The notes below the pieces were generated by a model that saw only the letters and a list, made by a program, of their open reading frames with translations, was not told the DNA's origin and searched no databases. The translations under genes were made by a program, and so were the position numbers. Source: Patescibacteria group bacterium (GTDB lineage Bacteria > Patescibacteriota > Patescibacteriia > 2-01-FULL-39-33). From it: 32,000 nucleotides of DNA. Shown piece after piece: positions 10,317 through 32,000 of this stretch (positions within the stretch are counted from its first letter, which is position 1; each line of letters opens with the position of its first letter). The DNA lies in contig JBAZMW010000002.1 in assembly GCA_041649575.1 (NCBI GenBank), positions 30,001 through 62,000 on the forward strand, written 5' to 3'.

Positions 10317-10973
10317 ATGGATTTGATCAAAGCAATAAAAAACAGACGCAGCGTTAGGACCTTTCAGCACAAACCAGTAGCCAGAGAATTGATCGAGAAG
10401 CTGATAGAGTCGGCTATTTGCGCTCCCTCGGCTTGCAACATTCAGGGCTGGAAATTTATCGTGGTTGATAATCAGGACGTCAAAAAAAGCATAGTAGACG
10501 CCGGCGGCTCGGTTTTGATTGAAAAAGCGCCTTTAGGAATCCTGGTTTTATATAACAACCGAACCCACAATGTCGGCTATCGTGATTATATCCAAAGCGC
10601 GTCCGCGGCGATAGAAAATTTGCTTTTGACCGCCACTAGCGAGGGCCTGGGGGCTTGCTGGATCTGCCATCTGCCTCGGCCTGGGAATTTACGAAAAATT
10701 TTTAATATTCCCAAATCTTTTTCTCCCATCGCCTATCTACTATTGGGTTATCCGGAAAATCAGCCTCAGGCCGTGCCGCGTAAATATCGGCTCGACGAAG
10801 TTATGGCGGTTAATAAGTTTTCTCCAAATTGGCCCAGATTAAAAGTGAGTTGGCTCGGACTAAAGATTAAAAGATTATTAATCGCCATTTATAATTTAAT
10901 GCCAACCATCATTAAGAAAAAATTTTTGAACAAATTAGTTGACAAGAACTTCGTAAAAAAGTTTGAAAATTAG
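10317..10973 (+). CDS. Nitroreductase-family flavoprotein with an extra C-terminal amphipathic/basic tail
   Basis: AIKNRRSVRTFQHKPV, APSACNIQGWKFIVV and GLGACWI are hallmark nitroreductase/NADH-oxidase-fold motifs. The last roughly 45 aa (LKVSWLGLKIKRLLIAIYNLMPTIIKKKFLNKLVDKNFVKKFEN) lie beyond the usual fold. Confidence 0.8.
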   Translation: MDLIKAIKNRRSVRTFQHKPVARELIEKLIESAICAPSACNIQGWKFIVVDNQDVKKSIVDAGGSVLIEKAPLGILVLYNNRTHNVGYRDYIQSASAAIENLLLTATSEGLGACWICHLPRPGNLRKIFNIPKSFSPIAYLLLGYPENQPQAVPRKYRLDEVMAVNKFSPNWPRLKVSWLGLKIKRLLIAIYNLMPTIIKKKFLNKLVDKNFVKKFEN

Positions 10974-10979
10974 GAAATA

Positions 10980-12395
10980 ATGAAAATAATTTTTATCAAT
11001 CCGCCGGTTAAGAATCTCATTACCGCTAATGTGCCTATGGTGGTAGAGGAGGGAGGCCGTGGCGCGCTGCCGCCTCTAGGTATTTTGTATGTGGCCGCCT
11101 ATTTAAAAAAATATACCAGCAATGAGATTAAAATTTTGGATTTGGAGCTGGAATCTAAAAGCGATGAGGAAATTGGTGATTACCTTTTAAAAGAAAAGCC
11201 CCAGGTCGTCGGCATCACTTTGATTTCCTTTCTTTTGATCGATGTCATTAATTTAATTAGCTTGATTAGGCGCTTTTTGCCAGAAGTGAAAATAATTGCC
11301 GGTGGTCCGCATGCCTGCATTTATCCGGTTGAAACTTTAAATAGTTTGCATGTTGATTATGTCGTCTTAGGCGAAGGCGAATTGCCCTGCTTTGATTTGA
11401 TCAGTAATTTGGATGACCTAGAAAAGTTAAAGAAAGTTAGGGGATTGGTTTTTAAAGATGGTGAAGAAATTATCAATACCGGCCCCAGAGAATTGATTCA
11501 AGATTTAGACTCCTTGCCCTTTCCTGCTCGGGAATTGACAGAGTACAAAAAATATTATTCCACCCTGGCCTTGGCCAATCCGACTACCACCATGTTCACT
11601 TCCAGGGGCTGTCCTTACCAGTGTGTTTTTTGCGACCGGCCACACTTGGGCAAGTTTTTCCGGGCGCGATCAGCAAAGAATGTGGTTGATGAAATGGAAG
11701 AAGTGGTTGGCTTGGGTATTAAAGAAATTTATATTTATGACGACACCTTTACCATTGATCGTCAACGAGTAGTTGATATCTGCGAAGAGATTTTGAGGAG
11801 AAATTTGAAAATTTATTGGGATGTAAGGGCCAGAGTCAATACGGTAGATGAAGAATTGTTAAAACTCATGAAAAAAGCCGGTTGTTCCCGAATTCATTAT
11901 GGAGTCGAATCTGGTGTTGATCGGGTGTTGGAGAACCTTCGCAAAGGCATTACCGTTGAGATGGTCAGGCGCGCTTTCAAAATGACGAAAATAGTTGGAA
12001 TTGAAACGGCAGCTTACTTTATGGTTGGTTGCCCCGGTGAAACTATGGACGATATTAAAAAGTCGGTAGAACTGGCCAAAGAATTAAAGCCGGCCTATGT
12101 TCATTTTTCGGTATTCAGTATTTACCCGGCCACGGACGCCTATCTTAGGGCCTTAAAGGCTGGTTTAGTTAAAAAAGACGTTTGGCAAGAATTTGCCGCC
12201 GCGCCCTCGGCTGATTTTAAACCGCCGCTTTGGGAGGAAAATTTTAGTCGGGAACAGCTAATTGAAATATTAAACCAGGCCTACCGCTCGTTTTATTTGA
12301 GGCCAAGTTATGTCTTTAAAAAATTAGTCGAAATAAAATCATTTAGCGATCTTTGGCACAAGGCAAGGATTGGATTGAAGATCTTTAGGATTTAA
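10980..12395 (+). CDS. Class-B radical SAM enzyme with B12-binding-like domain (stand-alone paralog of the rSAM half of 24267..26660)
   Basis: Matches are IIFINPP...LPPLGILYVAAYLKKY...IIAGGPHACIYP...VVLGEGE, the CxxxCxxC motif TSRGCPYQCVFC, YGVESGVDRVLENL, MVGCPGETMDD and the conserved C-terminal block YRSFYLRPSYVFKKL. It is one of the few genes with an SD-like AGGA (10972..10975). Confidence 0.9.
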   Translation: MKIIFINPPVKNLITANVPMVVEEGGRGALPPLGILYVAAYLKKYTSNEIKILDLELESKSDEEIGDYLLKEKPQVVGITLISFLLIDVINLISLIRRFLPEVKIIAGGPHACIYPVETLNSLHVDYVVLGEGELPCFDLISNLDDLEKLKKVRGLVFKDGEEIINTGPRELIQDLDSLPFPARELTEYKKYYSTLALANPTTTMFTSRGCPYQCVFCDRPHLGKFFRARSAKNVVDEMEEVVGLGIKEIYIYDDTFTIDRQRVVDICEEILRRNLKIYWDVRARVNTVDEELLKLMKKAGCSRIHYGVESGVDRVLENLRKGITVEMVRRAFKMTKIVGIETAAYFMVGCPGETMDDIKKSVELAKELKPAYVHFSVFSIYPATDAYLRALKAGLVKKDVWQEFAAAPSADFKPPLWEENFSREQLIEILNQAYRSFYLRPSYVFKKLVEIKSFSDLWHKARIGLKIFRI

Positions 12396-19285: not shown

Positions 19286-20537
19286 TTGTTTTCCTCCTTT
19301 GTTGGGAGGGGGCGCGGCGATTATCGCCCAAAGACTGTCTCTGGCCATGCAAAAAGCAGGTCATGAAATTTTTGTTTTTTCTATTTGCCAGAAGGAAGAA
19401 GACGCTGGCGAGCGGGAAGTGGATGGATTAAGAGTGTTCTTCTTGCGTGATCAATATAACCCAAAGTGGCGTGGCTGGCTATCTTTATACAACCGTAAAG
19501 TCCTCTCGGTTTTGGAAAAGCATTTGGCCGATTTTAGACCGGATGTGGTCCAGGCTCACAATATTCATTCCTATATTTCTTACGCTTGCTTGAAACTGTC
19601 AAAAAAATATTGCAGAAAGGTTTTTTTGACGGCTCATGATGTGGATATTTTTCATCAGGACAAATTTTTTAGTTATATCGATAGAAATAACTTAACAATT
19701 CCCAGCAGCTTCAATTACAAATTAACAATTATAGAAAGGATTAAACAGATCAAGCAAACCAAAAACCCTTTTAGGAGTTTAATTATTAAATATTACTTGA
19801 AAAACGTAAATCGGATTATTCCAGTCAGCCAGGCCCTGGAGCAGGCTTTAAAGCAGAATGGTATTACTAAATTGAGGGTCATCCATAACGGCATTGAGCC
19901 TGGTGAGGCCGTAGTTAACGCTAGAAGTCTGATTAAAGAAAGATTTAATATTGATTTGGCAAAAAAAATAATTTTAATCGCCGGTCGGTTTGGCGGGTTA
20001 AAGGGCGGTGATTTGATTCTAAAGTATGTTCAGGAAATAAAAAAATCATTTAGTGATTTTGTTTTTGCCATCGCCAGCGATAAATATCAGTATAATGAAA
20101 ATATTTTTAAGCAGGCCAAGGCCATGAACTTATCGGAGCATCTGGTTTTTACCGGTTGGCTAAATTATAGCGAGTTGAGAATTCTATATTCCGGCTGTGA
20201 TGTCTGTTTTATTCCCTCGGTTTGCTTTGACTCATTTCCCAATGACAATTTGGAAGCCATGTCTTTTAAAAAGCCGGTCGTTGGCACTTGTTTCGGTGGC
20301 ACGCCGGAAGCAGTGGTTGACGGCGAAACTGGCTACGTCGTTAATCCTTTTAATATACTTAAAGTTGCAGAAAAAATTGTAGAGTTATTAAATAATTCAA
20401 CAAAAGCAGAAAAAATGGGGGAAGCTGGATTTAGAAGGGTAAAAGAGAAATTTAGTCTAAGTGAGCAGATAAACAAATATTTTACTGTTTTTTTTGAAGC
20501 TGCTATAAATAAAGAGTCAAATAAAAAGCCACAATGA
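19263..20537 (+). CDS. Glycosyltransferase family 4-like (GT-B)
   Basis: Matches are MRIMVLTDCFPPLLGGGAAI, GRFGGLKGGDLIL and DSFPNDNLEAMSFKKPVVGTCFGGTPEAVVDGETGYVVNP (EX7E-type region). The start overlaps the upstream gene by 23 nt. Confidence 0.85.
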   Translation: MRIMVLTDCFPPLLGGGAAIIAQRLSLAMQKAGHEIFVFSICQKEEDAGEREVDGLRVFFLRDQYNPKWRGWLSLYNRKVLSVLEKHLADFRPDVVQAHNIHSYISYACLKLSKKYCRKVFLTAHDVDIFHQDKFFSYIDRNNLTIPSSFNYKLTIIERIKQIKQTKNPFRSLIIKYYLKNVNRIIPVSQALEQALKQNGITKLRVIHNGIEPGEAVVNARSLIKERFNIDLAKKIILIAGRFGGLKGGDLILKYVQEIKKSFSDFVFAIASDKYQYNENIFKQAKAMNLSEHLVFTGWLNYSELRILYSGCDVCFIPSVCFDSFPNDNLEAMSFKKPVVGTCFGGTPEAVVDGETGYVVNPFNILKVAEKIVELLNNSTKAEKMGEAGFRRVKEKFSLSEQINKYFTVFFEAAINKESNKKPQ

Positions 20538-22258
20538 AAAATCAGCTAATTAAAAAAATTATTTTTCCTCTATTTTTAATTTTTATTTTTATTGTCGCTA
20601 TAGGTATTTGGTCTACCCCGATTCTATTTAAAGGCTATCCGGTTTCCCTAAGGAGCGTGGAAATTGTTTTAGCTAGAAATTTAGCCCAGAGCAGTGTTTA
20701 TGGCTCGGAGAATGATTTAAATGTGGTAGTGGCGCCGGAACTCGTTAAGACCGAAGCTCATTACAGCTCTCAAGGCAACAAATTCAGTCCGATTTTTTGG
20801 TCAATGATTTTTAAGGCTTTAGGCCATCAAGACTGGAATCATCTGATCATAATTTCTTTGATTATCAACGCTTTAAGTCTGATCTTTTTTACTCTCACCA
20901 TCCGTTTTTTATTTGGTATGAAAACGGCCATGTTTTTCCCTTTTATTTATATTTTACTGCCATCAATCTGGCAGACTGCGGCCGTATCTTTGGGCGTCTA
21001 TGAATTCAGCCTGTTATTTTTCTCTCTCTTCACCTTATTTTATTTTTGGGGCGGTAAGCAAAAATTCAGTTATTTTTATCTAGTTCTGTCTGGTATCTTT
21101 ATGATTTTTTCTTGTCTAGCCAAAGAAGTGATGTTTTTGTTTGTGCCGGTTTTTTTCTTTTGGCTTTTATTTTACAAAAAGAAAAAGGAATTATTGGCTG
21201 TCTTTATTCCTTTTTTTGTCTTACTAGCGATTTTTTGGCTGCCAACCATGTTGGGATTTAAGGGCCAGAATCATTACCGTAATTTCTTCGTCGTCAATTC
21301 TGCGCAAGAAGACAGTTATGCCGATTATCACTCTTTTGGTGAGTTTTGTCGCGATCCTTATACTTTTCATTTCGAACGCGAAGCAACCAAGATTAAGTTT
21401 GAACAAAAAATTAAACAGACGGAAAATGAAGGCGGCTGGCTTTATCTAGGAGCTTTGGCTAAAACCGGAGCTAATAATGCTATTAGAAATATTAGTTTTA
21501 GCGAGCGTCTATCGGAAGGGATGGTTTTATTATTAAAGCATTTACTTCGCTACCTTTCCCTAGAAGATATTGGAGGGCCTTTTATCTTTTTATTAATGAT
21601 AATCGGTTGGTGGCAATTAAAGAAAAAGGACGTTAAGCTTCATTATCTTCTTGGCGTCTGGCTAGTCGCTGTTCCATTTCTCCTAGCTTTTGTGGCCCTG
21701 GCTAGCCGTAATCATTTAGTTGACTTTGGTTTTGCCATTGCCGGCTTGGTCTCTTTGGGTCTGATTGGTATTTGGCAAACAACCAAAGACAGCTACTCTT
21801 CCGGCAAGTATGCTAAAATATTTTTTATTCTTGTAATTTTGCTGACTTTGTACGCCTTGTTTTTGGCTGGTCGTACTTTTTGGGGCAGGGCCTATGATAG
21901 TTCAAATACTTTAGAAATACAGTATCTAGCTAAAAAAACAAATGAAATACCAAATATTAGTCCTCGGGAGGTAATTGCTGGTGGCTGTGCTTGTTTTCAG
22001 CCAACTTTGAATTATTTGACTAATAAATCAGTGGTTTTTTTCCATCCCGATACTATCAGGGAACTAGTGGAAAAAAGAAAGTTACAGGCGGCTTTTGATA
22101 AATTTGGCGTTAAATATTTTATTGGTTATGATTCTCAAATTTCTAAACTGATAGCCGAAAACAGCAATGCGAAAAACATCGCCGCTTGGCCCGAAAAAAA
22201 AGAAGTTAATCTCCCTACCAGTTATAATAAGAGTTGGCTTCTTAATTTAATCAGATAA
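20534..22258 (+). CDS. Polytopic membrane protein with C-terminal soluble domain; third GT-C-like or polymerase/ligase-like candidate
   Basis: 574 aa, with an ATGA start overlap. Hydrophobic segments span most of aa 1-460, interrupted by a charged loop (aa ~245-320). The C-terminal roughly 110 aa are soluble. Only a weak first-loop acidic motif is present (SVEIVLARNL), so the function is inferred mainly from architecture and context. Confidence 0.45.
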   Translation: MKNQLIKKIIFPLFLIFIFIVAIGIWSTPILFKGYPVSLRSVEIVLARNLAQSSVYGSENDLNVVVAPELVKTEAHYSSQGNKFSPIFWSMIFKALGHQDWNHLIIISLIINALSLIFFTLTIRFLFGMKTAMFFPFIYILLPSIWQTAAVSLGVYEFSLLFFSLFTLFYFWGGKQKFSYFYLVLSGIFMIFSCLAKEVMFLFVPVFFFWLLFYKKKKELLAVFIPFFVLLAIFWLPTMLGFKGQNHYRNFFVVNSAQEDSYADYHSFGEFCRDPYTFHFEREATKIKFEQKIKQTENEGGWLYLGALAKTGANNAIRNISFSERLSEGMVLLLKHLLRYLSLEDIGGPFIFLLMIIGWWQLKKKDVKLHYLLGVWLVAVPFLLAFVALASRNHLVDFGFAIAGLVSLGLIGIWQTTKDSYSSGKYAKIFFILVILLTLYALFLAGRTFWGRAYDSSNTLEIQYLAKKTNEIPNISPREVIAGGCACFQPTLNYLTNKSVVFFHPDTIRELVEKRKLQAAFDKFGVKYFIGYDSQISKLIAENSNAKNIAAWPEKKEVNLPTSYNKSWLLNLIR

Positions 22259-22262
22259 AAAG

Positions 22263-23279
22263 ATGATTGATTTTAAAAATCTACCTCAAGTTGCCGGCAA
22301 TATCCTTAAAGCGAGGATTGGCCATCGCGTTCCTCTGAAAGTCACCCAGTATGTGACTTATCGTTGCAATTTAGCTTGTGGTTTTTGCGGGCGTCGTTAT
22401 TTGAAAACGTCAGAAATGGCCACCGAGCAGATTAAAAAATGCATGGATGAGTTTAAGAAAATGGGTACGATTTTTTGGTCTTTTAACGGCGGTGAGCCGC
22501 TGCTGCGTCCGGACATTGGGGAATTAATTAATTATTCCCAAAAATTAGGATTCAAGTGTTCCATTATGACTAATGGCACCTTAATTCCGGAAAAAATAGA
22601 GCAGTTGAAAGGCTTGGATTTAGTCGAAGTCAGTCTCGATGGTCCCGAGGAAATAAATGACGCCATTAGGGGTCAGGGCACCTTTAAAAAAGTTATCAAG
22701 GCGATAGAAATATTAAGGGCTAATAACATCTTGGTCTGTATTGATTCGGTTATCAACAGCACCAACCTCGATTATTTAGACGAGCTTTGGAAAATAAGCG
22801 AAAAATACGGTACTCAATTGGAGTTTCAGCCGGTTATTATCCATAGTGGTGATCAAGAAAAAAAAGCGGCTCAATATTTTCCGGCCAAGGAAAAATTTTT
22901 GGTGGCGATTAACTGGTTAATCGCTCAAAAGAGACAAGGCCGTAAAATTAACAACTCTTTTTCTTATTTAGAACAACTAAAAAGTTATCCAGATCTGCCC
23001 ATGTCTTTAGACTGCTGGGCGTCTTATCTTTTTTGTGTCATCACTCCCGATGGCTTTGTGGCGCCTTGCGCCGTTATGCTTGATGAACAGGAGAAATTCA
23101 AAAATGGCCTGGAAGTTAGTTTTGAAAAAGCTTTTTATAGTCTACCGGATCTTAAAAAATGTCGTCGTTGTTTTTTTAGTTGTTATGGGGAATATAACTG
23201 TGCGCTTAATTCATTAACTAAAACCGGATTAAAGTTTATCAAAAATAAAATATTGGGTAGCGGTTGGTTTTGGCAGTAA
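22263..23279 (+). CDS. Radical SAM enzyme with a full SPASM-type C-terminal domain (7 Cys)
   Basis: The cluster motif is YVTYRCNLACGFC (CxxxCxxC), with NGGEPLL as the SAM-binding GGE. The C-terminus is DCWASYLFCVITPDGFVAPC (CX12GX4C) followed by CRRCFFSCYGEYNC (CX2CX3CX5C). It is the last gene of the + array. Confidence 0.85.
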   Translation: MIDFKNLPQVAGNILKARIGHRVPLKVTQYVTYRCNLACGFCGRRYLKTSEMATEQIKKCMDEFKKMGTIFWSFNGGEPLLRPDIGELINYSQKLGFKCSIMTNGTLIPEKIEQLKGLDLVEVSLDGPEEINDAIRGQGTFKKVIKAIEILRANNILVCIDSVINSTNLDYLDELWKISEKYGTQLEFQPVIIHSGDQEKKAAQYFPAKEKFLVAINWLIAQKRQGRKINNSFSYLEQLKSYPDLPMSLDCWASYLFCVITPDGFVAPCAVMLDEQEKFKNGLEVSFEKAFYSLPDLKKCRRCFFSCYGEYNCALNSLTKTGLKFIKNKILGSGWFWQ

Positions 23280-23298
23280 TTTATTTTTTTTGCCAAAA
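23268..23298. repeat. 8-bp inverted repeat (TTTTGGCA / TGCCAAAA, 15-nt AT-rich loop) spanning the two convergent stop codons
   Basis: Read directly from the sequence: 23268..23275 is ttttggca and 23291..23298 is tgccaaaa. Each arm is inside the last codons of a SPASM rSAM gene, and both proteins end ...FWQ(KK). The function is unknown; it could be a weak bidirectional terminator. Confidence 0.5.
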
Positions 23299-24270
23299 AA
23301 AGAAGATGTCTGCGTACATATTCCAAACATCACACTTGGCGCAGATGGAAATCTGGTCATACTTACCTTGAAGATGAAGTTGCCTATATTTTTTTATCAA
23401 TTCTGAATTCCAAATTTTATTAACGGTTTGGTCACTGGCGTTTCCCAAGACGCCCACTCTGGCTAGGTCGTCGCAACAAATGGAGACATCGCCGTTAAAA
23501 TGGACAGCCGGGGAAAACCACAGATGATAACAAGGATATCTTTTGTGATTTTTTCTGACATGGCTTTTTGCCACGTTGCCGCCATAATTGTGTTGGTCTC
23601 GCAGTTCGATGATGACTTTTTCGTTTTGCCATTTGGAAATGAAGTTTTTTGCCTGCGATTGCGTGTCATCGTCAACAATCATCCGGACAAAAATTTTTGG
23701 TTTTGCCGCCCGCCCCTTAATTTTTATCAGCTCTTTGACGTTTTTTTCCACTTCATCTAGTTTGTCCACCCCGGTTTTTTCGCGGTAGGTTTGCGCTTCC
23801 GGGCTTAGGAAACTAATGGAAACCTTGTCAATCCCGATTCTAACAATCTGTTCTGCGATGGTCGGAGACAGTAGAGATCCGTTGGTGGTTAAGGAAATGC
23901 TGTTTCGCCGATTTTTTTCTTTGATGTATTTGGCCATCTCCATGAGCCGTGGGTTAATCAGCGGTTCACCAGACAAATGGAGAGAAAAATTTCTCGGGCC
24001 ATAATTGGCCGCCTCATTAACTATCTTTTTAAAAAAATCAAAATCCATACTACCGATCAGGGTTTTGCCGGTTATCCGGGCGCAGATGCGGCAATTGAAA
24101 TTACAAACAGAGGTCGATTCCAAAAAAATATGTTGAGGGAAATCATAATTGATCATCCTTTGGACAAAGACTTTTTTAAACCAGCTAAGAGGCGGGAAAT
24201 TACTCCAATCATCTAGTTTTTTGACGTTGATTTTAGAATTTAGATAGCTGAAAAAATCATTTTTAGTCAT
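23281..24270 (-). CDS. Radical SAM enzyme with an abbreviated SPASM/twitch-type C-terminal domain
   Basis: The cluster motif is ESTSVCNFNCRIC, with LSGEPLI as the GGE-like motif. The C-terminus is CYHLWFSPAVHFNGDVSICC (CX12GX4CC) followed by CAKCDVW (CX2C). It is the last gene of the - array, and its start overlaps the upstream gene as ATGA. Confidence 0.8.
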   Translation of the reverse strand: MTKNDFFSYLNSKINVKKLDDWSNFPPLSWFKKVFVQRMINYDFPQHIFLESTSVCNFNCRICARITGKTLIGSMDFDFFKKIVNEAANYGPRNFSLHLSGEPLINPRLMEMAKYIKEKNRRNSISLTTNGSLLSPTIAEQIVRIGIDKVSISFLSPEAQTYREKTGVDKLDEVEKNVKELIKIKGRAAKPKIFVRMIVDDDTQSQAKNFISKWQNEKVIIELRDQHNYGGNVAKSHVRKNHKRYPCYHLWFSPAVHFNGDVSICCDDLARVGVLGNASDQTVNKIWNSELIKKYRQLHLQGKYDQISICAKCDVWNMYADIFFFWQKK

Positions 24271-26660
24271 GGAGATGGGTTTATTTTTTTAAAAGGCACT
24301 GGTTTAAAGATGGTCATAATTGCTCCCCATAAGCTGGTTAGGATAAAATTAAGCAGAATAATTTCAGATAGTAGTACCAGTGATTCAGTGGATTTTACCA
24401 GCGGCCCCAAAAGAATAATAAGCGCGGCCTCTCTGGTGCCGATACCCAGAAAAGATATGGGCAGCAGGCTTAGAAAGGAAGCGATCGCGACAGAGGTTAT
24501 CAGTTCAGGAAAACTGACGACGGTTAAATTTATAGCCTGGCCGAAAAAGTAAATCTGTCCCGAATAAATTACCCAAGAAAGAGCCGTGATCAAAAATCCT
24601 ATAAAATACGTTTTGTAATTGTAGGTTTTTAGGCCGGTTTTAAAACTATTAATCTCGCTAGTCAGGCCAGCAGGCATCAGCCGATAAAATATTTTTTCAA
24701 TAAATTTTCTAAAAAATTTATTTTTTATGGCCAGCAGCGCCGCCAGAATCAGCAGGATGATTACAAGGTAGAGTAGAAAGAATTTTTCCAAATAACGACT
24801 GAAAAAGAAAATCAAACCAACTAAGCTAAATAGTAGTAAAAAAAATAAATCAAACAATCTATCCATAATAACGCTTACCAGAGACTCTCCTGATTTATAG
24901 CCTTTGGCTTTCAAATAATAAATTTTGATCAGTTCGGCGATCCGGCCGGGCGTAACGGAAGCAAAACCCAAGGCCGCGATATAGATTTTAAATGATTCCA
25001 TTATTTTGTAAACAATGCCTTGTTTTTTCTTAAGATAATTCCAACGCCAGGCCCTTACAAAAAGGTAAGGAACAGTTAAAAGCATGCCGAATAGCATAAG
25101 GGCATAGTTCATGGTTTTTAAAAGCTGGATCGTGGCCGTCCAGTTGATTTCCTTGGCAATAATAACAACCAGAACCAAACTAATTAGAAAATAATATTTT
25201 TTGGAAATAGTTTTCAACGGCCGATAAAAGGGAGAGTTTTTAATGATCAATTTCAAAAGCTTGATTCCCGCCCGTAAATTATTTTTTAAATTATTCCAAC
25301 TGCGCAATTCTAAAATTCTTCTTAAAATATAACGTGGCGCAAGGTAATATGAGCGGTAGGCGGCAATCACCATGGAAAACAGTTCCTTTCGGGAAAAAGT
25401 TTCGTCCCAAACCGGCGGCAGAAAATCTGGTTTAGGGTCGAGCGCGAATTTTTGCCAGAAATCTTCTTTAAAAACGCCTTCTTTTTTCCCCATTAGATAT
25501 AAATCAGTAGCCGCGGGAAACAAGGTTAGCACAGAAAAGTGGACATAGTCGGGAAAAAGTTTTTTGGCTAATTTGATCGTTGCTTTGATATCGGCTTCAG
25601 TTTCATGAGGCGAACCGATCATAAAATACCCGGCCGTTTCTATGCCCGCCTTTTTCGTCAGGGCAAAAGCCTTTTTGACCATGGGCATAGAGATATCTTT
25701 TCTTAATATTTTGAGGATTTTTTCCGTACCCGCTTCAACACCGTAGTGGATTCTGGTGCAGCTAGCCTTTTTCATTAATTTTAACAACTCTTCATCCACG
25801 GTGTTGACCCTAGCTCTCACATCCCAATTTATTTTTAATCCCTTTTGGATAATGAGGCGGCAGATATCTATCACTCGTTGGCGGTCAATGGTAAAAGTGT
25901 CGTCGTAAATGAAGATTTCTTTAATGCCTAATTTTTTTATCTCTTCCATTTCCGCGACCACATTGGGAGCGCTCCGAGCCCTGAAAGCCTTGCCCATGTG
26001 CGGCCGATCGCAGAACAGGCATTGGTAGGGGCAGCCACGCGAGGTGAACATAATGGTCGTGGGATTTTTCTGGGCTACTATGGAGTAATATTTTTTGTAA
26101 GGAGTGAGTTCTCTGGCTGGAAAGGGCAAAGAATCCAAATCTTGAATTAATTCCCTTTTTCCAGTATTGATAATCTTCCCACCTTCCTTAAAAATCAGTC
26201 CTTTGATGTTTTTTGTTTTTTCCGGATTATCAAGATTATCAAGTAATTCGGCTAAGGCTATCTCGCCTTCACCTACCACCAGATAGTCAACAAAATCGTT
26301 ATTAATGGTTTCTTCTGGATAAAGATAGGTATGAGGTCCGCCCAATATTATTTTTATCTGCGGGTTGGCTTTCCTCACGGCCTGGGCGATTAGGTAAACA
26401 TCGATTAAGGAAAAAGTCAAAACCGTGATGCCGATTGCATCAGGATCCTCGGCCACAATCCTGGAAACAATTTCCTCATTGCTGATGTCCTCCATCGGAC
26501 AATCCAGCACTTTTACCTGGTGAGGAGTATTTTTTTGTAGGTAGCCGGCCAAATATAAAAGACTTAGAGGCGGTAAAAAATCCATGCCCGATTCCAGTTC
26601 TTTGGGCATGTCGCTTTCAATTATTTTGGCGAGCGGCGGGTTAATTAAGAGTATTTTCAT
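24267..26660 (-). CDS. Fusion protein: class-B radical SAM (aa 1-~475, nt ~25235..26660) plus an 8-TM flippase-like domain of the UPF0104/LPG_synthase_TM (MprF N-terminal, HpnL-like) type (aa ~485-797, nt 24270..~25208)
   Basis: The N-terminal half has ILLINPP...LPPLSLLYLAGYLQKN...ILGGPHTYLYP...LVVGEGE, TSRGCPYQCLFC and YGVEAGTEKILKIL. The C-terminal half has about 8 hydrophobic helices plus family hallmarks: VRAWRWNYLKK, TPGRIAELIKIYYLK and LLPISFLGIGTREAALIILL. It is a single uninterrupted 797-codon ORF. Confidence 0.85.
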   Translation of the reverse strand: MKILLINPPLAKIIESDMPKELESGMDFLPPLSLLYLAGYLQKNTPHQVKVLDCPMEDISNEEIVSRIVAEDPDAIGITVLTFSLIDVYLIAQAVRKANPQIKIILGGPHTYLYPEETINNDFVDYLVVGEGEIALAELLDNLDNPEKTKNIKGLIFKEGGKIINTGKRELIQDLDSLPFPARELTPYKKYYSIVAQKNPTTIMFTSRGCPYQCLFCDRPHMGKAFRARSAPNVVAEMEEIKKLGIKEIFIYDDTFTIDRQRVIDICRLIIQKGLKINWDVRARVNTVDEELLKLMKKASCTRIHYGVEAGTEKILKILRKDISMPMVKKAFALTKKAGIETAGYFMIGSPHETEADIKATIKLAKKLFPDYVHFSVLTLFPAATDLYLMGKKEGVFKEDFWQKFALDPKPDFLPPVWDETFSRKELFSMVIAAYRSYYLAPRYILRRILELRSWNNLKNNLRAGIKLLKLIIKNSPFYRPLKTISKKYYFLISLVLVVIIAKEINWTATIQLLKTMNYALMLFGMLLTVPYLFVRAWRWNYLKKKQGIVYKIMESFKIYIAALGFASVTPGRIAELIKIYYLKAKGYKSGESLVSVIMDRLFDLFFLLLFSLVGLIFFFSRYLEKFFLLYLVIILLILAALLAIKNKFFRKFIEKIFYRLMPAGLTSEINSFKTGLKTYNYKTYFIGFLITALSWVIYSGQIYFFGQAINLTVVSFPELITSVAIASFLSLLPISFLGIGTREAALIILLGPLVKSTESLVLLSEIILLNFILTSLWGAIMTIFKPVPFKKINPSP

Positions 26661-28099
26661 TTATTTTTTGGCTTTGGTTTAAATAGAATTCGTCCTAATA
26701 TTAGCATACCCAAAAATACGGTTTTTATTCCGTCCCAGGAATTAAGTTGTTTTAATTTGCGAATAATATATTTTGGTCTGAGATAAAACTCGCGGAAGGC
26801 TCTTTTTTGCCAATAGACTAGATCGGCTGGCGTCAGGCTTCTCTGAACCGGCAGAGGCGCCGTATTGCTTAAAGGAGCGAATCTTTCCCAGGGGGTGTCT
26901 TTGGAAATAAGGCCTTCTTTTTGGGCGTAGTAGTACAAATCAGAGCCAGGCACGGGACAGGTGATGAAAAAAGTGGCGTTATCTAAATCTAGGCTTTTGG
27001 CAAAATCAATAGTTTCTCTTATGGTTTCTTCGGTTTCGCCAATATTGCCGAGCATGAAACTGGCGTGCGCCAAGATGCCGTGGCGTCTGGCGATACTGAT
27101 GGCGCGTTTTCCAATCTCGGTGGTAGTTTGTTTGCGCATCAAGCTTAGCACTTTTTGCGAGCCCGACTCCAGCCCAAAAGATATTTTTTTGCATCCGGCT
27201 TTAGCCATTATTTCCGCCAGTTCGTCGCTGATTGTATCGGCTCTAGAGGAACAGATCCAGGCGATGGGCAGTTTTTTGTCAATTATTTTCTGGCAGATTT
27301 CAAATGCCCTGGGCCGGTTTAAGGTAAAGTTATCATCCAAGATGTTAAATTCTTTGATGTTGAATTTATTAATGCATTCTTCGATCTCCGCAATAACGTT
27401 GTCAGCGCTCCGGTATCGCAGGCGACGTTGCCAAATACTTTTGGAAACACAATGCACACAATCGAAGTTGCAACCTCGGCTGGTTTGTAAGGGGGAACAC
27501 TGTTCCTCGGTCAGTTTCTTGGTGGGAGCGGAATAATATAATTTTAGGTCGAATAAATCACGGGCAGGAAAGGGGATATCGTCTAAATTTTGAATCATCT
27601 GGCGGGGCGGGTTGTTTATTATTTCCCCCCGGCGTTTAAAGTATAAACCGTTTATTTTTTCAAAATCGGTTTTTTTATCCGAAAGAGTTTTAACTAATTC
27701 ATAAAAAGTTTCTTCTCCCTCACCAATGACCGCAAAGTCGACGTAAGGATTACTCATCACTTCTTGAGGTAAGATGGTGGGATGAGTGCCGCCAAGAACC
27801 GTGACACAATTTAATAATTCTAAGTCTTCTTTAATGATCCGGCAGATTTCGAGAACATGGTTAATCGTCGGCGAGAGGCAGGTGAAGCCGACGATATCTG
27901 GTTTTTCCTTGGCCAAAAAATTTTTTATTTCTTCATAGCCCAAGGCCATGGCTTCCGTGTCGAGGATTTTTATTTCACAGTCGATTTTGGCACGCAAATA
28001 GCCGGCCAGGTAGGCCAGATTAAACGGCATGGCGTGGCCGCCAGATTCTTTCATGCCCTCGAAGTTTATGTAGGGAGGGTTAACAAGTATGATCTTCAT
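26657..28099 (-). CDS. Class-B radical SAM enzyme with B12-binding-like domain
   Basis: Matches are IILVNPP...AMPFNLAYLAGYLRAK...LGGTHPTILP...AVIGEGEE, the motif TSRGCNFDCVHC, FGLESGSQKVLSLM, MLGNIGETEETI and the conserved C-terminal block REFYLRPKYIIRKL with a hydrophobic/basic tail. Confidence 0.9.
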   Translation of the reverse strand: MKIILVNPPYINFEGMKESGGHAMPFNLAYLAGYLRAKIDCEIKILDTEAMALGYEEIKNFLAKEKPDIVGFTCLSPTINHVLEICRIIKEDLELLNCVTVLGGTHPTILPQEVMSNPYVDFAVIGEGEETFYELVKTLSDKKTDFEKINGLYFKRRGEIINNPPRQMIQNLDDIPFPARDLFDLKLYYSAPTKKLTEEQCSPLQTSRGCNFDCVHCVSKSIWQRRLRYRSADNVIAEIEECINKFNIKEFNILDDNFTLNRPRAFEICQKIIDKKLPIAWICSSRADTISDELAEIMAKAGCKKISFGLESGSQKVLSLMRKQTTTEIGKRAISIARRHGILAHASFMLGNIGETEETIRETIDFAKSLDLDNATFFITCPVPGSDLYYYAQKEGLISKDTPWERFAPLSNTAPLPVQRSLTPADLVYWQKRAFREFYLRPKYIIRKLKQLNSWDGIKTVFLGMLILGRILFKPKPKNK

Positions 28100-28117: not shown

Positions 28118-28948
28118 CTAAAGATTATAATTTTCTATTGACAGGCAGTCAAAATTTTTTAAAACGTAATTTAATTTTTTCCAAGTTTTTTGCGCCTGGC
28201 CGTATTTGATGATTTTTCTAATTTTAGGCATCTTGAAATCAGGCGGCTCGCCCAGAAAATCAAAAGGGTGGAAATAAAGACAGGCTGGATTGTTTTTAAG
28301 TTTGAGCCGAAGCAATTTTCTAAACACGAACCAGGGGATAATTCTTAAATAGACACCACCCGCAATGGGAATTCTTATTAGCTTACCGTCAAAAACAGCC
28401 AAGGGCATTTCTTTGATGCCGTTTATCTGGTAAGGGTTGATTTCCCCTTTTTTGTGGCCGTAATTTCTGCTTTTAAAAAATTTAAAAATAAAGTTTGGCA
28501 GACTAAAAGGGAATAGAGAAGAATCAAACTTGATACCTTTTGACGCCAGCACAGGTAGTGCCCAAAAAGTAGAAGAATCCAAAGAAAAATTGACAGCGCG
28601 GTGGCTGACCGGTCTTTTGCTGGTCAGGGCTGTAATCTTGTCCACCAAAATTTCTATTTCTTTTTTAAAGTTGTCGGAATTTTTCTGCCAAAGCGGCCGG
28701 TGATCCAGGGAGTGCAGGCCGATTTCTTGACCAGCGTCATTTATTTTTTTAATTAGGTTTGGCTCGTTTTCTATAACTTTTCCGGTCACAAAAAAAGTGG
28801 CCGTTGCTTTGTTATTTTTTAATAGCGGTAGAATTTTTTCCGTAAAGCTTTCCAGGTTTTCCCGTTCGTTGCCCTTAAGATATCTTTGCAAAGACAAAGA
28901 TTCAAACCAATATTCCAGGTCAAAAGTTAGAATTACTGGATTCATCAC
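28118..28948 (-). CDS. Polysaccharide deacetylase, CE4 superfamily (FDxExW subtype)
   Basis: Matches are ILTFDLEYW (motif 1 variant), GLHSLDH (HxxxH) and VSHRAVNFSL (RAPxFS-like). The track start at 28948 is GTG. An ATG one codon downstream (28943..28945) shares one nt with the upstream TGA and is an equally good start. Confidence 0.72.
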   Translation of the reverse strand: MMNPVILTFDLEYWFESLSLQRYLKGNERENLESFTEKILPLLKNNKATATFFVTGKVIENEPNLIKKINDAGQEIGLHSLDHRPLWQKNSDNFKKEIEILVDKITALTSKRPVSHRAVNFSLDSSTFWALPVLASKGIKFDSSLFPFSLPNFIFKFFKSRNYGHKKGEINPYQINGIKEMPLAVFDGKLIRIPIAGGVYLRIIPWFVFRKLLRLKLKNNPACLYFHPFDFLGEPPDFKMPKIRKIIKYGQAQKTWKKLNYVLKNFDCLSIENYNL

Positions 28949-29835
28949 TGGCGGTTGTTAATTTCTCTTCTAATAGCGGCAATCTGATCGGCCAAAAGAC
29001 CAAAGAAAAAGACGAGAATAGACGCAATAAAGAGGAAAATGGTGCTGTCGGAAAGATTTATAGAAATAAGATCAAAAGCCAGGAAAATTAAAGCGACTAT
29101 AAATAGAATCAGGCTGACCGGAAAAAAAATACGTAGCGGAGAAAAAGTCATAATCAGACGGAAAATCAGCATTAAAGTAGTGAAACCATCGCGCGGTTTG
29201 ACCGTGCTTTTGGAACCACCCTCTCTTTTGTTTATTTCAATAGGCAGAAATTTAACATTTTTTTTGTCTTTCAAAAAAGCCAGGGTAGAAGTGGTGGACA
29301 TGGAAAAACCATTAGGCATCAGGTGCAAGTAGTTTTTAAGAATATTTTTTTTGACCAGGCGTAAGCCGCAGTTTAAATCAGGGATTTTATAATCCACCAG
29401 GTAATTGGCAACAACTCTCAGCAACCACAGGCCTGGTTTTCGCAGAGTCGGCCTGACATATTTGCCGCCAGTCCGATCGCCAGCGATTAGTTCATAGTCA
29501 TTAATATGAGCGATAAAGTTTTTTATATCTTCAGGACGATGTTGGCCGTCGGAGTCAAAAAATAAAATCCAATCATGCCCCGAATTAAGGACTCCGGTTT
29601 TCAGGGCGGCACCATAACCTTTGTTGTAGGGATGGTTTATTAGTTTTATACCTTCAATTTTATTTAGAACTTCTTTGCTATCATCTGTCGAACCGTCATT
29701 TATAACAATAATTTCATGTTCTATTCCCAGACCAATAAGTTCTTTTTTAAGCATTTCCACTGTTTGCTGGACTTTTTGACTTTCATTGTAGACTGGAACG
29801 ACTACAGATAAATTTATTGTTTGATTGTTTTCCAT
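28945..29835 (-). CDS. GT2 polyprenyl-phosphate glycosyltransferase (GtrB/ArnC/HpnI-like architecture); paralog of 8664..9536
   Basis: Matches are LSVVVPVYNESQKV, VINDGSTDDS, HPYNKGYGAALKTG and the DXD motif FFDSDG. There are two C-terminal TM helices (FFPVSLILFIVALIFLAFDLI and IFLFIASILVFFFGLLADQI). Confidence 0.85.
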   Translation of the reverse strand: MENNQTINLSVVVPVYNESQKVQQTVEMLKKELIGLGIEHEIIVINDGSTDDSKEVLNKIEGIKLINHPYNKGYGAALKTGVLNSGHDWILFFDSDGQHRPEDIKNFIAHINDYELIAGDRTGGKYVRPTLRKPGLWLLRVVANYLVDYKIPDLNCGLRLVKKNILKNYLHLMPNGFSMSTTSTLAFLKDKKNVKFLPIEINKREGGSKSTVKPRDGFTTLMLIFRLIMTFSPLRIFFPVSLILFIVALIFLAFDLISINLSDSTIFLFIASILVFFFGLLADQIAAIRREINNRQ

Positions 29836-29843
29836 AAATATTT

Positions 29844-31202
29844 TTATCTCCCTCTGCCTCCCAACGCCACCTTAATGGTTTTAAGTAAAATACTTAGATC
29901 CATCAGCAGCGAACGGTTTTTTATATAATATAAATCATATTTAACTTTTTCCAGAGATTCTTCCTTGGAGCCGCCATAAGCCGGTCCGTTGAGTTGGGCC
30001 CAACCGGTAAGCCCAGGCTTCACCAGCAGCCGTTCCCTGTAAAAAGGCACCTCTTGGGCCAAAATTTGGATAAATTCTGGTCTTTCTGGCCTAGGCCCGA
30101 CCAGACTCATTTCTCCTCGTAAGATGTTAATTAATTGGGGGATTTCATCCAGCCTGGTTTTACGCATTAATCTGCCGAAACGAGTCACTCTCGGATCGTT
30201 TTCACTGGCCCATTGTGGCCCGTTTTTCTCGGCGTTATCAAACATCGAGCGGAATTTCATGGCCAAAAAATTTTTACCGTTTTTGCCAACGCGTATTTGC
30301 TTAAAGACCACCGGTCCCGGACTTTCTAATTTTATGATCAGAGCTATTGGCGGCGCGATAAATATGGCCACTAGCAGGCCGAGTAAAGCCAGAAAGACAT
30401 CCATGATTCTTTTGCTGATCTCATAAAGTTTTTTGGAATGTTCGGCCAAGTTTTCCAAAAACCAGCTGTGTTCCAGATATTCAGCCGGCACTTTATTGGT
30501 TATCTGCTCGTAAAAGCTGTTGATATTATAAACATCAACGCCTAGCGACAAACAGTCGAAGATTTTTCGCGAGATTTCATCATTATTTTTTAAACTATTG
30601 GCGCTGACCAGGATATCCACCTGGTTTTCTTGGCAATATTTTTTTAAATCTTCGGGAACATTTTGGTTGTTTATGGCTTGATACCCTAGTTGCGGCTTAT
30701 GATTTATCTCTCTGATTAACGAATCAGCCAGCGGTGATTGACCAATGATCAGCACCTTATTGCTAATGGCCGAGGATTTTATAAAGGTATAGAATATCCG
30801 ACGCCACAAAAAAGAGAAAACCAAGGAAATAATCACATCTATCGCAAGGACTCTTTGCGGTTTAATACTTCCTAGAAAAGGATTGAAAAAATAAAAAATA
30901 GCTATAGCTATCAGAATGTTTATAACATAAACACGAACTAGCAGATTTAACAGGTTGTTTATATTATAACTTATTTTTAAATCATAAAGCTCGTTAATAA
31001 AAAAAACCAATAACCAGATAACAAAAACCACAGTAAACATAATTACATGTCCTGACCAGAAATAACCGATGTCCTTTAGGCCGTATCTGATAATTAAGGT
31101 CAAGTATAAACCTAGATATAAAGTGGCCAGGTCGCCTAACAAAAGGATGACCTTTTTTGTTTTAATAAAGAAATTAGCCATAATTTTAAGCGATAACTTC
31201 AA
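29844..31202 (-). CDS. Polyprenyl-phosphate glycosylphosphotransferase (WbaP/'bacterial sugar transferase' family), priming enzyme
   Basis: The N-terminus has about 4 TM helices, followed by a central Rossmann-like region. The C-terminal catalytic domain has KRIMDVFLALLGLL...PGPVVFKQIRVGKNGKNFLAMKFRSM...DPRVTRFGRLMRKTRLDEIPQLINILRGEMSLVGPRPERPEF. The track start at 31202 is TTG. The ATG at 31179..31181 (MANFFIKTKK...) is a plausible alternative start. Confidence 0.9.
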   Translation of the reverse strand: MKLSLKIMANFFIKTKKVILLLGDLATLYLGLYLTLIIRYGLKDIGYFWSGHVIMFTVVFVIWLLVFFINELYDLKISYNINNLLNLLVRVYVINILIAIAIFYFFNPFLGSIKPQRVLAIDVIISLVFSFLWRRIFYTFIKSSAISNKVLIIGQSPLADSLIREINHKPQLGYQAINNQNVPEDLKKYCQENQVDILVSANSLKNNDEISRKIFDCLSLGVDVYNINSFYEQITNKVPAEYLEHSWFLENLAEHSKKLYEISKRIMDVFLALLGLLVAIFIAPPIALIIKLESPGPVVFKQIRVGKNGKNFLAMKFRSMFDNAEKNGPQWASENDPRVTRFGRLMRKTRLDEIPQLINILRGEMSLVGPRPERPEFIQILAQEVPFYRERLLVKPGLTGWAQLNGPAYGGSKEESLEKVKYDLYYIKNRSLLMDLSILLKTIKVALGGRGR

Positions 31203-31299: not shown

Positions 31300-32000
31300 A
31301 TGGTTAAAAGATTTTTTTTATTTTCAATTGTTTGCTTGTTTTTTTTTATTACTATTTTTCCGGCTCAGGCCTATGTTCCCTCCGACCCGTTGTATTACCG
31401 AGAAACCTATCTCAACCCTCTTGGCGCGGAAAAAGCTTGGGATTTGTCACGGGGTAATGGCGTGGTAGTAGCCGTCTTAGATTCCGGGGTAGACACGGAC
31501 CACCCTGATTTAAAAAATAATATTTGGCGTAATTTGGACGAAACTCCTGGCGATGGCGTTGATAATGATCATAATGGTTTTATTGACGATATTAGTGGTT
31601 GGGATTTTGTCTCAGGTCAGCCGGATCCCAAACCAAAATTTTCTGAAAACTATTCAGCAGCCGGCTTGGAACATGGCACGGCTATCTCGGGAGTGATCGC
31701 TGGTACGGCCAATAACGGGCAGGGAATGGTTGGCTTGGCTTTTGATTCCAAAATCATGCCTCTTAGAATTCTAGATGCTGACGGTACGGGGGAGGTGCCC
31801 AATCTGGTCAAAGCCATTGAGTACGCTGTCAATAACGGAGCTGATATCATTAACTTAAGCTTAGTTGGTTATGATTATAGCCAGGAACTTTTTGATGCCG
31901 TTAGGTCGGCTAACGCTCGGGGAGTGTTGGTGGTGGCGGCCGCTGGTAACGCCGAAGATGGTTTAGTTGACGGAATTAATCTTGATAACAGGCCGGCTTA
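31300..32000 (+). CDS. Secreted subtilisin-like serine protease (peptidase S8), N-terminal part; the ORF runs off the 3' edge and so is absent from the ORF track
   Basis: My own translation from the ATG at 31300 gives MVKRFFLFSIVCLFFFITIFPAQA/YVPSDPLYY... (signal-peptide-like). This is followed by VVAVLDSGVDTDHPDL (catalytic Asp block), DNDHNGFIDDISGWDF and EHGTAISGVIAG (catalytic His block), then VVAAAGN. The catalytic Ser block lies beyond nt 32000. Confidence 0.85.
   Translation, partial: MVKRFFLFSIVCLFFFITIFPAQAYVPSDPLYYRETYLNPLGAEKAWDLSRGNGVVVAVLDSGVDTDHPDLKNNIWRNLDETPGDGVDNDHNGFIDDISGWDFVSGQPDPKPKFSENYSAAGLEHGTAISGVIAGTANNGQGMVGLAFDSKIMPLRILDADGTGEVPNLVKAIEYAVNNGADIINLSLVGYDYSQELFDAVRSANARGVLVVAAAGNAEDGLVDGINLDNRPA

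Follow-up and report, generated by a model that had tools for sequence, protein, structure and literature searches.

The polytopic UPF0104 domain, also termed LPG_synthase_TM or PplT, has been experimentally shown to translocate a lipid only in MprF (10.1101/2022.03.11.483950). Enzyme–PplT fusions are a published theme, with 148 CDART architectures and partners that include GT-A, GT-B, kinase, HAD, O-antigen ligase, methyltransferase, and phosphotransferase domains (Hauser et al., 10.1101/2022.03.11.483950); the words "radical" and "B12" are absent from the text of that survey. UPF0104 proteins were also predicted to flip lipid-linked saccharides, and their neighborhoods contain AglD-like GT2, deacetylase, and PMT/STT3-like genes (Makarova et al., 2015; PMC5898192). 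In the hopanoid pathway, the glycosyltransferase HpnI adds N-acetylglucosamine to a membrane lipid, HpnK is a deacetylase, and HpnJ, a radical S-adenosylmethionine (SAM) enzyme with a B12-binding domain (hereafter B12-rSAM), is believed to catalyze a rearrangement of the resulting amino sugar on its lipid (PMC13459092). The UPF0104 protein HpnL, to which no function has been assigned, shows enrichment around shc, a locus at which hopanoid genes are clustered (10.1101/2025.07.29.667474). Here we describe a single gene that joins a B12-rSAM to a PplT domain, located in a 32-kb window (the whole stretch of DNA analyzed, positions 30,001 to 62,000 of contig JBAZMW010000002.1) of a Patescibacteria group bacterium (GCA_041649575.1). 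In the literature on fusions of radical SAM enzymes to flippases or MprF, and on B12-rSAMs and glycosyltransferases of Patescibacteria, we found no description of this architecture. The radical SAM partner is what is new; enzyme–PplT fusions and the GT2/deacetylase/GT-C neighborhood are already published. We propose, with a probability of about 0.5, that the radical SAM half would modify a lipid-linked amino sugar, which the fused transmembrane (TM) domain would then flip, as part of a Patescibacteria surface-glycan cluster.

At NCBI, the fused protein is MFA5029382.1, named "flippase-like domain-containing protein"; the contig that encodes it is 235 kb long and belongs to a Patescibacteria group bacterium. 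An initial annotation of this DNA had described one uninterrupted 797-aa open reading frame (ORF) at 24267-26660 joining a radical SAM enzyme to a polytopic domain, and we recover a single ATG-initiated ORF with three Pfam domains above their thresholds (Table 1). All of the motifs quoted in that annotation are present. The CX3CX2C cluster motif (C210/C214/C217, nt 26010..26033) lies inside the Radical_SAM core, within TSRGCPYQCLFC (aa 206-217), and the family-typical helix is found as YRSYYLAPRYILRRIL (aa 435-450); in the TM half, the hallmarks are RAWRW (aa 536-540), PGRIAELIK (aa 571-579), and LPISFLGIGTREAAL (aa 733-747). With its PF04055 core carrying CX3CX2C and its N-terminal PF02310 domain, the enzyme half belongs to the class B radical SAM enzymes, and its predicted fold matches those of the class B members TsrM, MgmA, OxsB, CysS, and TokK, the best match being AprD4 (6fd2, E 1e-11). 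AprD4 is cobalamin-independent although it has a B12-binding domain, and cobalamin binding by the fusion is therefore not to be assumed.

The assignment of the TM half to UPF0104 was borne out by profile searches: the PF03706 match is full-length (model positions 5-302 of 302), and the NCBIfam family TIGR00374, "flippase-like domain," scores 68-72.5 bits against a cut-off of 43.2. The fused copy retains the family-invariant PplT residues T570, P571, P734, G739, G741, and R743, as well as the near-invariant residues R539, W540, G572, G575, D600, R601, D604, and T742, and the protein extends 18 residues beyond the TM domain. The TM half has the fold of the MprF flippase domain: a Foldseek search with the AlphaFold2 (AF2) model of the fusion returned Rhizobium etli MprF (7f47, E 4.2e-4, 322 columns, 16% identity), and no other membrane protein figured among the PDB matches that reached significance (E <= 0.001). 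MprF was found by the fold search only, as a PDB search with the TM half by sequence or profile (alignment A1) gave no match. The fused protein has no Pfam match to DUF2156/LPG_synthase_C, the aminoacyl-phosphatidylglycerol synthase domain. Among the named families tried for the radical SAM half, HpnJ (TIGR03471) is the top NCBIfam match and reaches 227.9 bits against a cut-off of 577.6, and BchE (TIGR02026) reaches 210 bits against 481; for the TM half alone, HpnL (TIGR03476) gave no match at E <= 0.01. By the defining criteria of these families, the fused protein is not HpnJ, BchE, HpnL, or MprF.

The initial annotation also held the fusion to be genuine, and the evidence agrees. The identical fused protein was recovered in NCBI, JGI, ENA, and an independent Logan re-assembly, and a second fused protein from a different sample (P0002; SRR22388187; 798 aa, 80% identity) has the same three domains. 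P0002 is flanked by the same upstream B12-rSAM, and the gene directly following it downstream is cut by the contig end. Thirteen of the 15 linker residues are identical between the two orthologues, and five of the identical residues use different codons. Amino acid identity is 0.78 in the B12-binding domain, 0.81 in the radical SAM core, 0.83 in the C-terminal helix, 0.87 in the linker, and 0.81 in the TM domain, with different codons at ∼36% of the residues that are identical over the whole protein; this even identity and the many synonymous codon differences indicate that the fused frame is under purifying selection. An error of assembly, sequencing, or gene calling, in a genome that really has two genes, could be entertained given that in close relatives the two halves are separate genes, the stop of one overlapping the start of the other, and that contigs of metagenome-assembled genomes (MAGs) can hold indel errors in A-rich runs, one of which lies at the junction. 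Such an artefact is nonetheless very unlikely, in view of the same protein in different assemblies and of the fused orthologue from another run with its kept linker and synonymous changes. Nor does the frame offer a convincing start for a separate TM protein. It contains neither ATG nor GTG there, and TTG codons, at aa 469, 471, 482, and 495, are the only in-frame candidates; none has a recognizable ribosome-binding site, and an internal start was rejected as unsupported.

Relatives of the radical SAM half indicate how the fusion arose. Other than P0002, its close relatives (68% identity or less) are all stand-alone proteins of ∼470 aa. The stand-alone paralogue at 10980..12395 in the window (57.6% identity over aa 1-471) had been said to end exactly where the TM domain begins, which is approximately so: its end corresponds to residue 471 of the fusion, which leaves ∼11 residues to the first TM helix of the model (TM1, 482-503) and 20 to the point where the Pfam TM match begins. 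In Candidatus Buchananbacteria loci (L002 = L010, and L009), a 67-68% orthologue of the radical SAM half ends in ...LMTLIIKK and a stop, which overlaps by 4-8 nt the start of a separate 319-326-aa PF03706 gene (AAAAAATGACC; MTKPLNYSIFKKYYF...), followed in turn by the same SPASM radical SAM gene that stands behind the fusion in the window. The junction in the window, placed by the initial annotation at aa ∼475-490 (nt ∼25190..25235) and corresponding to the linker delimited in Table 1, instead reads in frame as ...LKLIIK-NSPFYRPLKTISKKYYF.... Since relatives keep overlapping separate genes where the window has an in-frame linker, the fusion is a derived, recent merger of two adjacent, translationally coupled, overlapping (ATGA) genes. 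The route is trivial, as loss of one stop and a small indel suffices. The novelty of the fusion was thus overstated in the initial annotation, given this simple merger and the enzyme–PplT fusions and neighborhood already in print (10.1101/2022.03.11.483950; PMC5898192).

The fusion is rare within its subfamily, with two sequences known, and no function has been assigned to this uncommon architecture. Further radical SAM fusions were found neither among 55 word-index matches to the TM half (all 265-338 aa), nor among the best 150 of 4758 phmmer matches in a library of 1.84 billion representatives (211-359 aa each, except one PplT–PMT_2 fusion), nor in 32 loci from GTDB species representatives (a search built on an alignment of the 11 closest sequences, A7), nor in 17 JGI metagenome loci retrieved by a junction-spanning query. 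Fusions are under-detected by the word-index search, which missed the parent proteins P0001 and P0002, and by the 50%-clustered library, which hides fused proteins grouped under a radical SAM representative. As 1301 phmmer matches reached E <= 1e-10 and the best 150 were inspected, independent, distant fusions may exist.

What is conserved is the gene pair, not the fusion. We counted 25 non-redundant loci with a PplT gene at least 34% identical to that of the window and with enough upstream sequence. In 14 of these, the gene that immediately precedes the PplT gene in the same orientation is a B12-rSAM (gap -8 to +30 nt), and in six others, including L006, a SAM-dependent methyltransferase takes that slot; the upstream gene and the PplT gene usually overlap by 1-4 nt. 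The pairing of B12-rSAM and PplT extends to an Altiarchaeota locus (L040), while in more distant, mostly DPANN, relatives the neighbors of the PplT gene are GT2 and deacetylase genes instead. The radical SAM paralogue found upstream of the PplT gene differs between loci.

Two side observations concern these loci. In L018 (752-2422) and L016 (611-2281), a 556-aa fusion of FrhB_FdhB_N/C (F420-hydrogenase/dehydrogenase beta-subunit; Pfam assignment made on L018 only) with a SAM methyltransferase overlaps the flippase-like gene downstream, and L033 has a cut-off relative of this methyltransferase in the same position. In addition, the MAGs of L013, L016, and L018 are labeled Gammaproteobacteria, Planctomycetia, and Methanosarcinales, respectively, and carry these loci of Candidate Phyla Radiation (CPR) type, with radical SAM, PplT, and GT-C genes (34-38% identity to the TM half of the window), on short contigs. 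These bins are probably contaminated, and the taxonomic spread suggested by their labels is therefore unreliable.

Two further pairwise fusions link the same enzymatic steps. In a Desulfobacterales MAG (JACQWO010000051.1; L021:1528-3741), a B12-binding domain, a Radical_SAM domain, and a GT2 form one 737-aa protein, in which the GT2 part is closest to DPMS (5mlz, 2e-21), and a PplT gene lies 2.3 kb downstream. The PplT–PMT_2 fusion from the representative library (P0279, 926 aa) joins an N-terminal LPG_synthase_TM/PplT domain to a PMT_2 GT-C. The three fusions (rSAM–GT2, rSAM–PplT, and PplT–PMT_2) chain together the GT2 synthase, radical SAM, PplT, and GT-C steps.

The fused gene belongs to a tight minus-strand operon with intergenic gaps of -4 to +18 nt (Table 1). 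The operon begins with the polyprenyl glycosylphosphotransferase, followed by a GT2 of the polyprenyl-phosphate sugar synthase class, whose best PDB relatives are ArnC (9hwj, 1.9e-14), DPMS (5mlz), and GtrB (5ekp); its NCBIfam matches to AglJ, PpgS, and ArnC are all under cut-off. No signal peptide or TM segment was predicted for the adjacent CE4 deacetylase, which is thus predicted to be cytoplasmic. The upstream B12-rSAM is assigned to the same operon as the fusion on account of their 4-nt overlap, and the SPASM gene directly downstream has relatives of 54-57% identity in the Buchananbacteria loci, in the same slot after the separate flippase-like gene.

A convergent plus-strand operon encodes four more complete B12-rSAMs and, truncated at the start of the window, part of another radical SAM enzyme, along with GT1, GT2, and GT9 enzymes, four methyltransferases, a Wzx-type flippase, a PMT_2 GT-C, a nitroreductase, and two unannotated membrane proteins of ∼575 aa. 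One of the latter (20534..22258) has no Pfam or NCBIfam match, and its AF2 model (pLDDT 90, pTM 0.90) matched only GT-C enzymes in Foldseek (AglB, STT3, PglB, ArnT, ALG12/9, and DPY19). PMT_2 is matched by 15 of the 44 aligned members of its family, which comprises 68 database matches, those with an organism name all being from Patescibacteria-group bacteria. In at least L013, L014, L015, L017, and L020, relatives of this gene adjoin the PplT gene, downstream on the opposite strand, and its product is the presumed user of the flipped donor. The other (5085..6824, plus strand, 579 aa) is probably another divergent GT-C. It starts with ∼9 TM segments, the first of them followed by an acidic DDE motif, and its C-terminal part is soluble; a 27%-identical relative is present in L056.

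Table 1. Features of the fused gene and of its neighbors, in nucleotide positions of the 32-kb window.
Feature	Position	Strand	Details
Whole fused gene	24267..26660	-	797 aa, single ATG-initiated ORF, no internal stop
B12-binding (Rossmann-like) domain, aa 29-140	26241..26576	-	Pfam PF02310, 79.2 bits (gathering cut-off 32.1)
Radical_SAM core, aa 206-365	25566..26045	-	Pfam PF04055, 96.6 bits (cut-off 29.5)
C-terminal helices of the radical SAM module, aa 435-475	25236..25358	-	Stand-alone relatives stop here
Fusion linker NSPFYRPLKTISKKY, aa 476-490	25191..25235	-	Stands where split genes have the stop/start overlap AAAAAATGACC
UPF0104/LPG_synthase_TM/PplT flippase-like polytopic domain, aa 491-779	24324..25190	-	Pfam PF03706, 133.7 bits (cut-off 33.4)
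Polyprenyl glycosylphosphotransferase (Bac_transf), first operon gene	29844..31202	-	Pfam 228 bits; TIGR03025 372.7 bits (cut-off 295.55)
GT2, polyprenyl-phosphate sugar synthase class	28945..29835	-	Two C-terminal TM helices
CE4 polysaccharide deacetylase with DUF3473	28118..28948	-	
Upstream B12-rSAM, BchE/HpnJ-like	26657..28099	-	480 aa; overlaps fusion start by 4 nt
Radical SAM/SPASM gene, directly downstream	23281..24270	-	Overlaps fusion by 4 nt
GT-C (PMT_2/PMT)	6885..8657	+	
Second ArnC/DPMS/GtrB-like GT2	8664..9536		PDB relatives; two C-terminal TM helices
Unannotated GT-C-fold glycosyltransferase	20534..22258	+	574 aa; structure prediction

In total, nine radical SAM genes occur in 31 kb (at 64, 1791, 10980, 12415, 17072, 22263, 23281, 24267, and 26657), six of which have a B12-binding domain. 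They are interspersed with glycosyltransferases and four SAM methyltransferases, at a density that is unusually high for a glycan cluster and that recurs in related CPR loci. The radical SAM gene at 22263..23279 (plus strand) has sub-threshold similarity to DUF3463 and to HpnH (72.6 bits, cut-off 225), and its best NCBIfam matches are mycofactocin- and PqqE-type maturases, far under cut-off. The nitroreductase-family gene (10317..10973, plus strand) is immediately upstream of a B12-rSAM gene in the window, L006, and L020, and two genes upstream of one, in the same operon, in L002, L009, and L010; as speculation, its product could serve these enzymes as a dedicated reductase, or could be a BluB-like protein related to cobalamin. 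At the end of the window, an ORF at 31301..32000 (plus strand), which runs off the edge, starts with a stretch resembling a signal peptide and contains VAVLDSGVDTDHPDL, a motif like that of subtilisins (S8).

The membrane location of these enzymes can be considered from their predicted structures. The linker of the fusion is K/R-rich, and all six B12-rSAMs of the window (1791, 10980, 12415, 17072, 25236, and 26657) end in a basic amphipathic helix, with a hydrophobic moment (muH) of 0.40-0.63 and a net charge of +5 to +9 over the last 30 residues; in the fusion, the radical SAM module terminates in RSWNNLKNNLRAGIKLLK (muH 0.63). These features fit enzymes at the cytoplasmic membrane face and suggest peripheral membrane binding even by the unfused B12-rSAMs. 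The AF2 model of the fusion (mean pLDDT 75.5) was built from alignment A6, after A2 and A5 were discarded for placing ∼250 residues of TM-only rows onto the radical SAM half. Alignment A6 still misplaces ∼38 N-terminal residues of the TM-only rows, which probably explains why pLDDT is low for residues 1-30 and in TM1. By contrast, residues 520-790, the core of the TM domain, are confidently modeled, at pLDDT 80-97, and its helices are compatible with the eight TM segments annotated initially, a number that the model does not establish rigorously. The model had also been proposed as a check on how the radical SAM active site is oriented toward the TM domain; owing to the low pLDDT of the linker and TM1, it is uninformative in this respect, and we draw no inference on inter-domain geometry.

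The genomic context (GT2, CE4, polyprenyl glycosylphosphotransferase, Wzx, PMT_2, and GT-C) points best to a polyprenyl-phosphate-sugar branch, Arn-like or AglD-like, into which radical SAM steps have been inserted. The initial annotation had argued that the substrate or product is a membrane lipid or a lipid-linked sugar and that its modification is coupled to export; gene context and the other fusions favor the lipid-linked sugar, and the coupling is one that we infer. In the proposed pathway, an ArnC/DPMS/GtrB-like GT2 would load an N-acetylhexosamine onto polyprenyl phosphate at the cytoplasmic face, and the cytoplasmic CE4 would de-N-acetylate it. The two B12-rSAMs of the operon would then modify the lipid-linked amino sugar, with the SPASM enzyme possibly acting as well. 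The most likely chemistry would be a C-methylation, favored because a conventional SAM methyltransferase takes the same slot as the radical SAM enzyme in other loci, with an HpnJ-like rearrangement as the alternative. The last of the radical SAM enzymes would pass its product directly to the fused PplT domain for transfer to the outer leaflet, where a GT-C (20534..22258 or 6885..8657) would move the sugar onto a surface glycan, protein, or lipid. GT-C enzymes take polyprenyl-linked donors on the outer face, as a flippase would deliver them. The PplT domain would fill the role of a small GtrA- or ArnE/F-type flippase, of which none was found among the scanned ORFs of the window, those of at least 150 aa. 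The fusion would hard-wire a 1:1 "modify then flip" hand-off, for which relatives would use separate, co-translated proteins.

Several points weigh against this proposal. The case for methylation is one of positional analogy only, and the best NCBIfam matches, HpnJ and BchE, are non-methylases that in any event score far under cut-off. The AF2 model, with its pTM of 0.63 and a pLDDT below 50 over the linker and TM1 (466-501), offers no reliable inter-domain contact. The specific pairing of radical SAM enzyme and PplT may be loose, because the upstream paralogue varies, being the 67-68% orthologue of the fused enzyme only in L009/L010, and because in L004 the orthologue of the fused enzyme stands several genes from the PplT gene. 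With two fused sequences known only, the fusion may confer no advantage. Lastly, the flippase activity of stand-alone UPF0104 proteins is unproven, and GpgF and HexF are dispensable for product formation (PMC12713373, PMC10128005).

The last two of these points would suit an arrangement in which the TM domain only anchors or scaffolds the radical SAM enzyme at the bilayer, or in which the fusion is a neutral read-through and the halves work as if alone. The absence of the fusion from the 32 species-representative loci, the 17 JGI loci, and the 150 closest TM representatives is in keeping with this, as is the ancestral ATGA overlap, from which one lost stop and a small indel would fuse the genes. 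A mere anchor, however, would not need R539/W540, T570-P571-G572, D600/R601/D604, and G741-T742-R743, all of which are kept; conservation between the two fused orthologues is the same in the linker as in either half, and the stand-alone radical SAM enzymes already have an amphipathic C-terminal helix of their own. We therefore regard a passive TM domain or a neutral fusion as unlikely.

Similarly doubtful is a bulk glycerolipid or glycolipid head group as the substrate, whereby the radical SAM enzyme would tailor an amino-glycolipid and PplT would move it outward, altering surface charge or packing. All experimentally studied PplT relatives, namely MprF, GpgF, and HexF, are tied to glycerolipids (10.1101/2022.03.11.483950, PMC12713373, PMC10128005), the nearest NCBIfam radical SAM family, HpnJ, is thought to act on lipid-bound glucosamine (PMC13459092), and a deacetylase is adjacent here as it is in synthase-deacetylase-flippase operons. 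However, the synthase in the window is a GT2 of the ArnC/DPMS/GtrB type, not a GT-B (GT4/MGDG-synthase type) such as GpgS and HexS; the recurrent neighbor of PplT is a GT-C, a user of polyprenyl-linked donors; and both the PplT–PMT_2 and the fusion of a radical SAM enzyme to a DPMS-like GT2 favor the polyprenyl route. We thus retain the modification and flipping of a polyprenyl-linked amino sugar as the preferred reading.

In its general form, this reading could tentatively be extended to a widespread, undescribed "modify-and-flip" unit of B12-rSAM and PplT in CPR bacteria and some DPANN archaea, in which the flippase would hold a polyprenyl-phosphate-linked amino sugar at its cytoplasmic mouth for direct radical chemistry, either C-methylation or ring rearrangement; we consider this extension less likely than the reading for the window itself. 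If true, the unit would provide the first case of a sugar being altered by a radical SAM enzyme while bound to its lipid carrier, and would explain unusual surface glycans of tiny, cobalamin-scavenging cells, the fused protein being a natural single-chain version. The fusion introduces no new principle and is confined to the two known sequences. Its value is that of a "Rosetta stone" which, along with gene order and the rSAM–GT2 and PplT–GT-C fusions, places many uncharacterized CPR/DPANN B12-rSAMs at the membrane, with lipid-linked sugars as their likely substrates at a stage after de-N-acetylation and before flipping. Enzymes annotated merely as "radical SAM protein" thereby gain a specific function that can be tested, and the still unproven flippase function of UPF0104 proteins that stand alone (such as HpnL, GpgF, HexF, and YbhN) gains a further context. 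A single-chain enzyme–flippase would also be a convenient target for cryo-EM and reconstitution.

Among described systems, GpgSDF of Pseudomonas aeruginosa and HexSDF of Clostridioides difficile follow the same logic, in which a glycosyltransferase, a de-N-acetylase, and an MprF-like flippase act in turn to yield a lipid-bound amino sugar (PMC12713373, PMC10128005); they differ in that their GT-B synthases act on phosphatidylglycerol or glycosyl-diradylglycerol, and in having neither a radical SAM step nor a fusion. The AglD-type GT2–UPF0104 fusions and archaeal neighborhoods (arCOG00899; PMC5898192) share the gene set of the window (GT2, deacetylase, and GT-C), but that work describes no radical SAM partner. 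The window cluster additionally has six or more B12-rSAM paralogues. HpnI, HpnK, and HpnJ are the closest case of a B12-rSAM that follows de-N-acetylation on a lipid-bound sugar. In the hopanoid module, however, HpnJ and HpnL are separate proteins; no shc or other hpn equivalog is present in the 32-kb window, and the TM half does not match HpnL.

In MprF (cryo-EM structure 7f47), the archetypal enzyme–PplT fusion, a cytoplasmic lipid-modifying enzyme is likewise covalently joined to a UPF0104/PplT polytopic domain that takes its product outward. The window fusion has the opposite domain order, its enzyme preceding the TM domain. The enzyme of MprF is a tRNA-dependent aminoacyl transferase (DUF2156) acting on phosphatidylglycerol, whereas that of the window is a B12-type radical SAM enzyme whose likely substrate would be a polyprenyl-linked sugar. 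In the Arn pathway, ArnC is the GT2, ArnD is a CE4 deformylase that acts in the cytoplasm before flipping, ArnEF is the flippase, and ArnT is a GT-C on the outside. The window has corresponding parts in its polyprenyl-phosphate GT2 with C-terminal TM helices, its cytoplasmic CE4, its flippase-like domain, and its GT-C. The two differ in the flippase, which is of the small ArnE/F (or GtrA) type in the Arn pathway and of the PplT type in the window, and in the radical SAM steps that in the window would stand between de-acylation and flipping.

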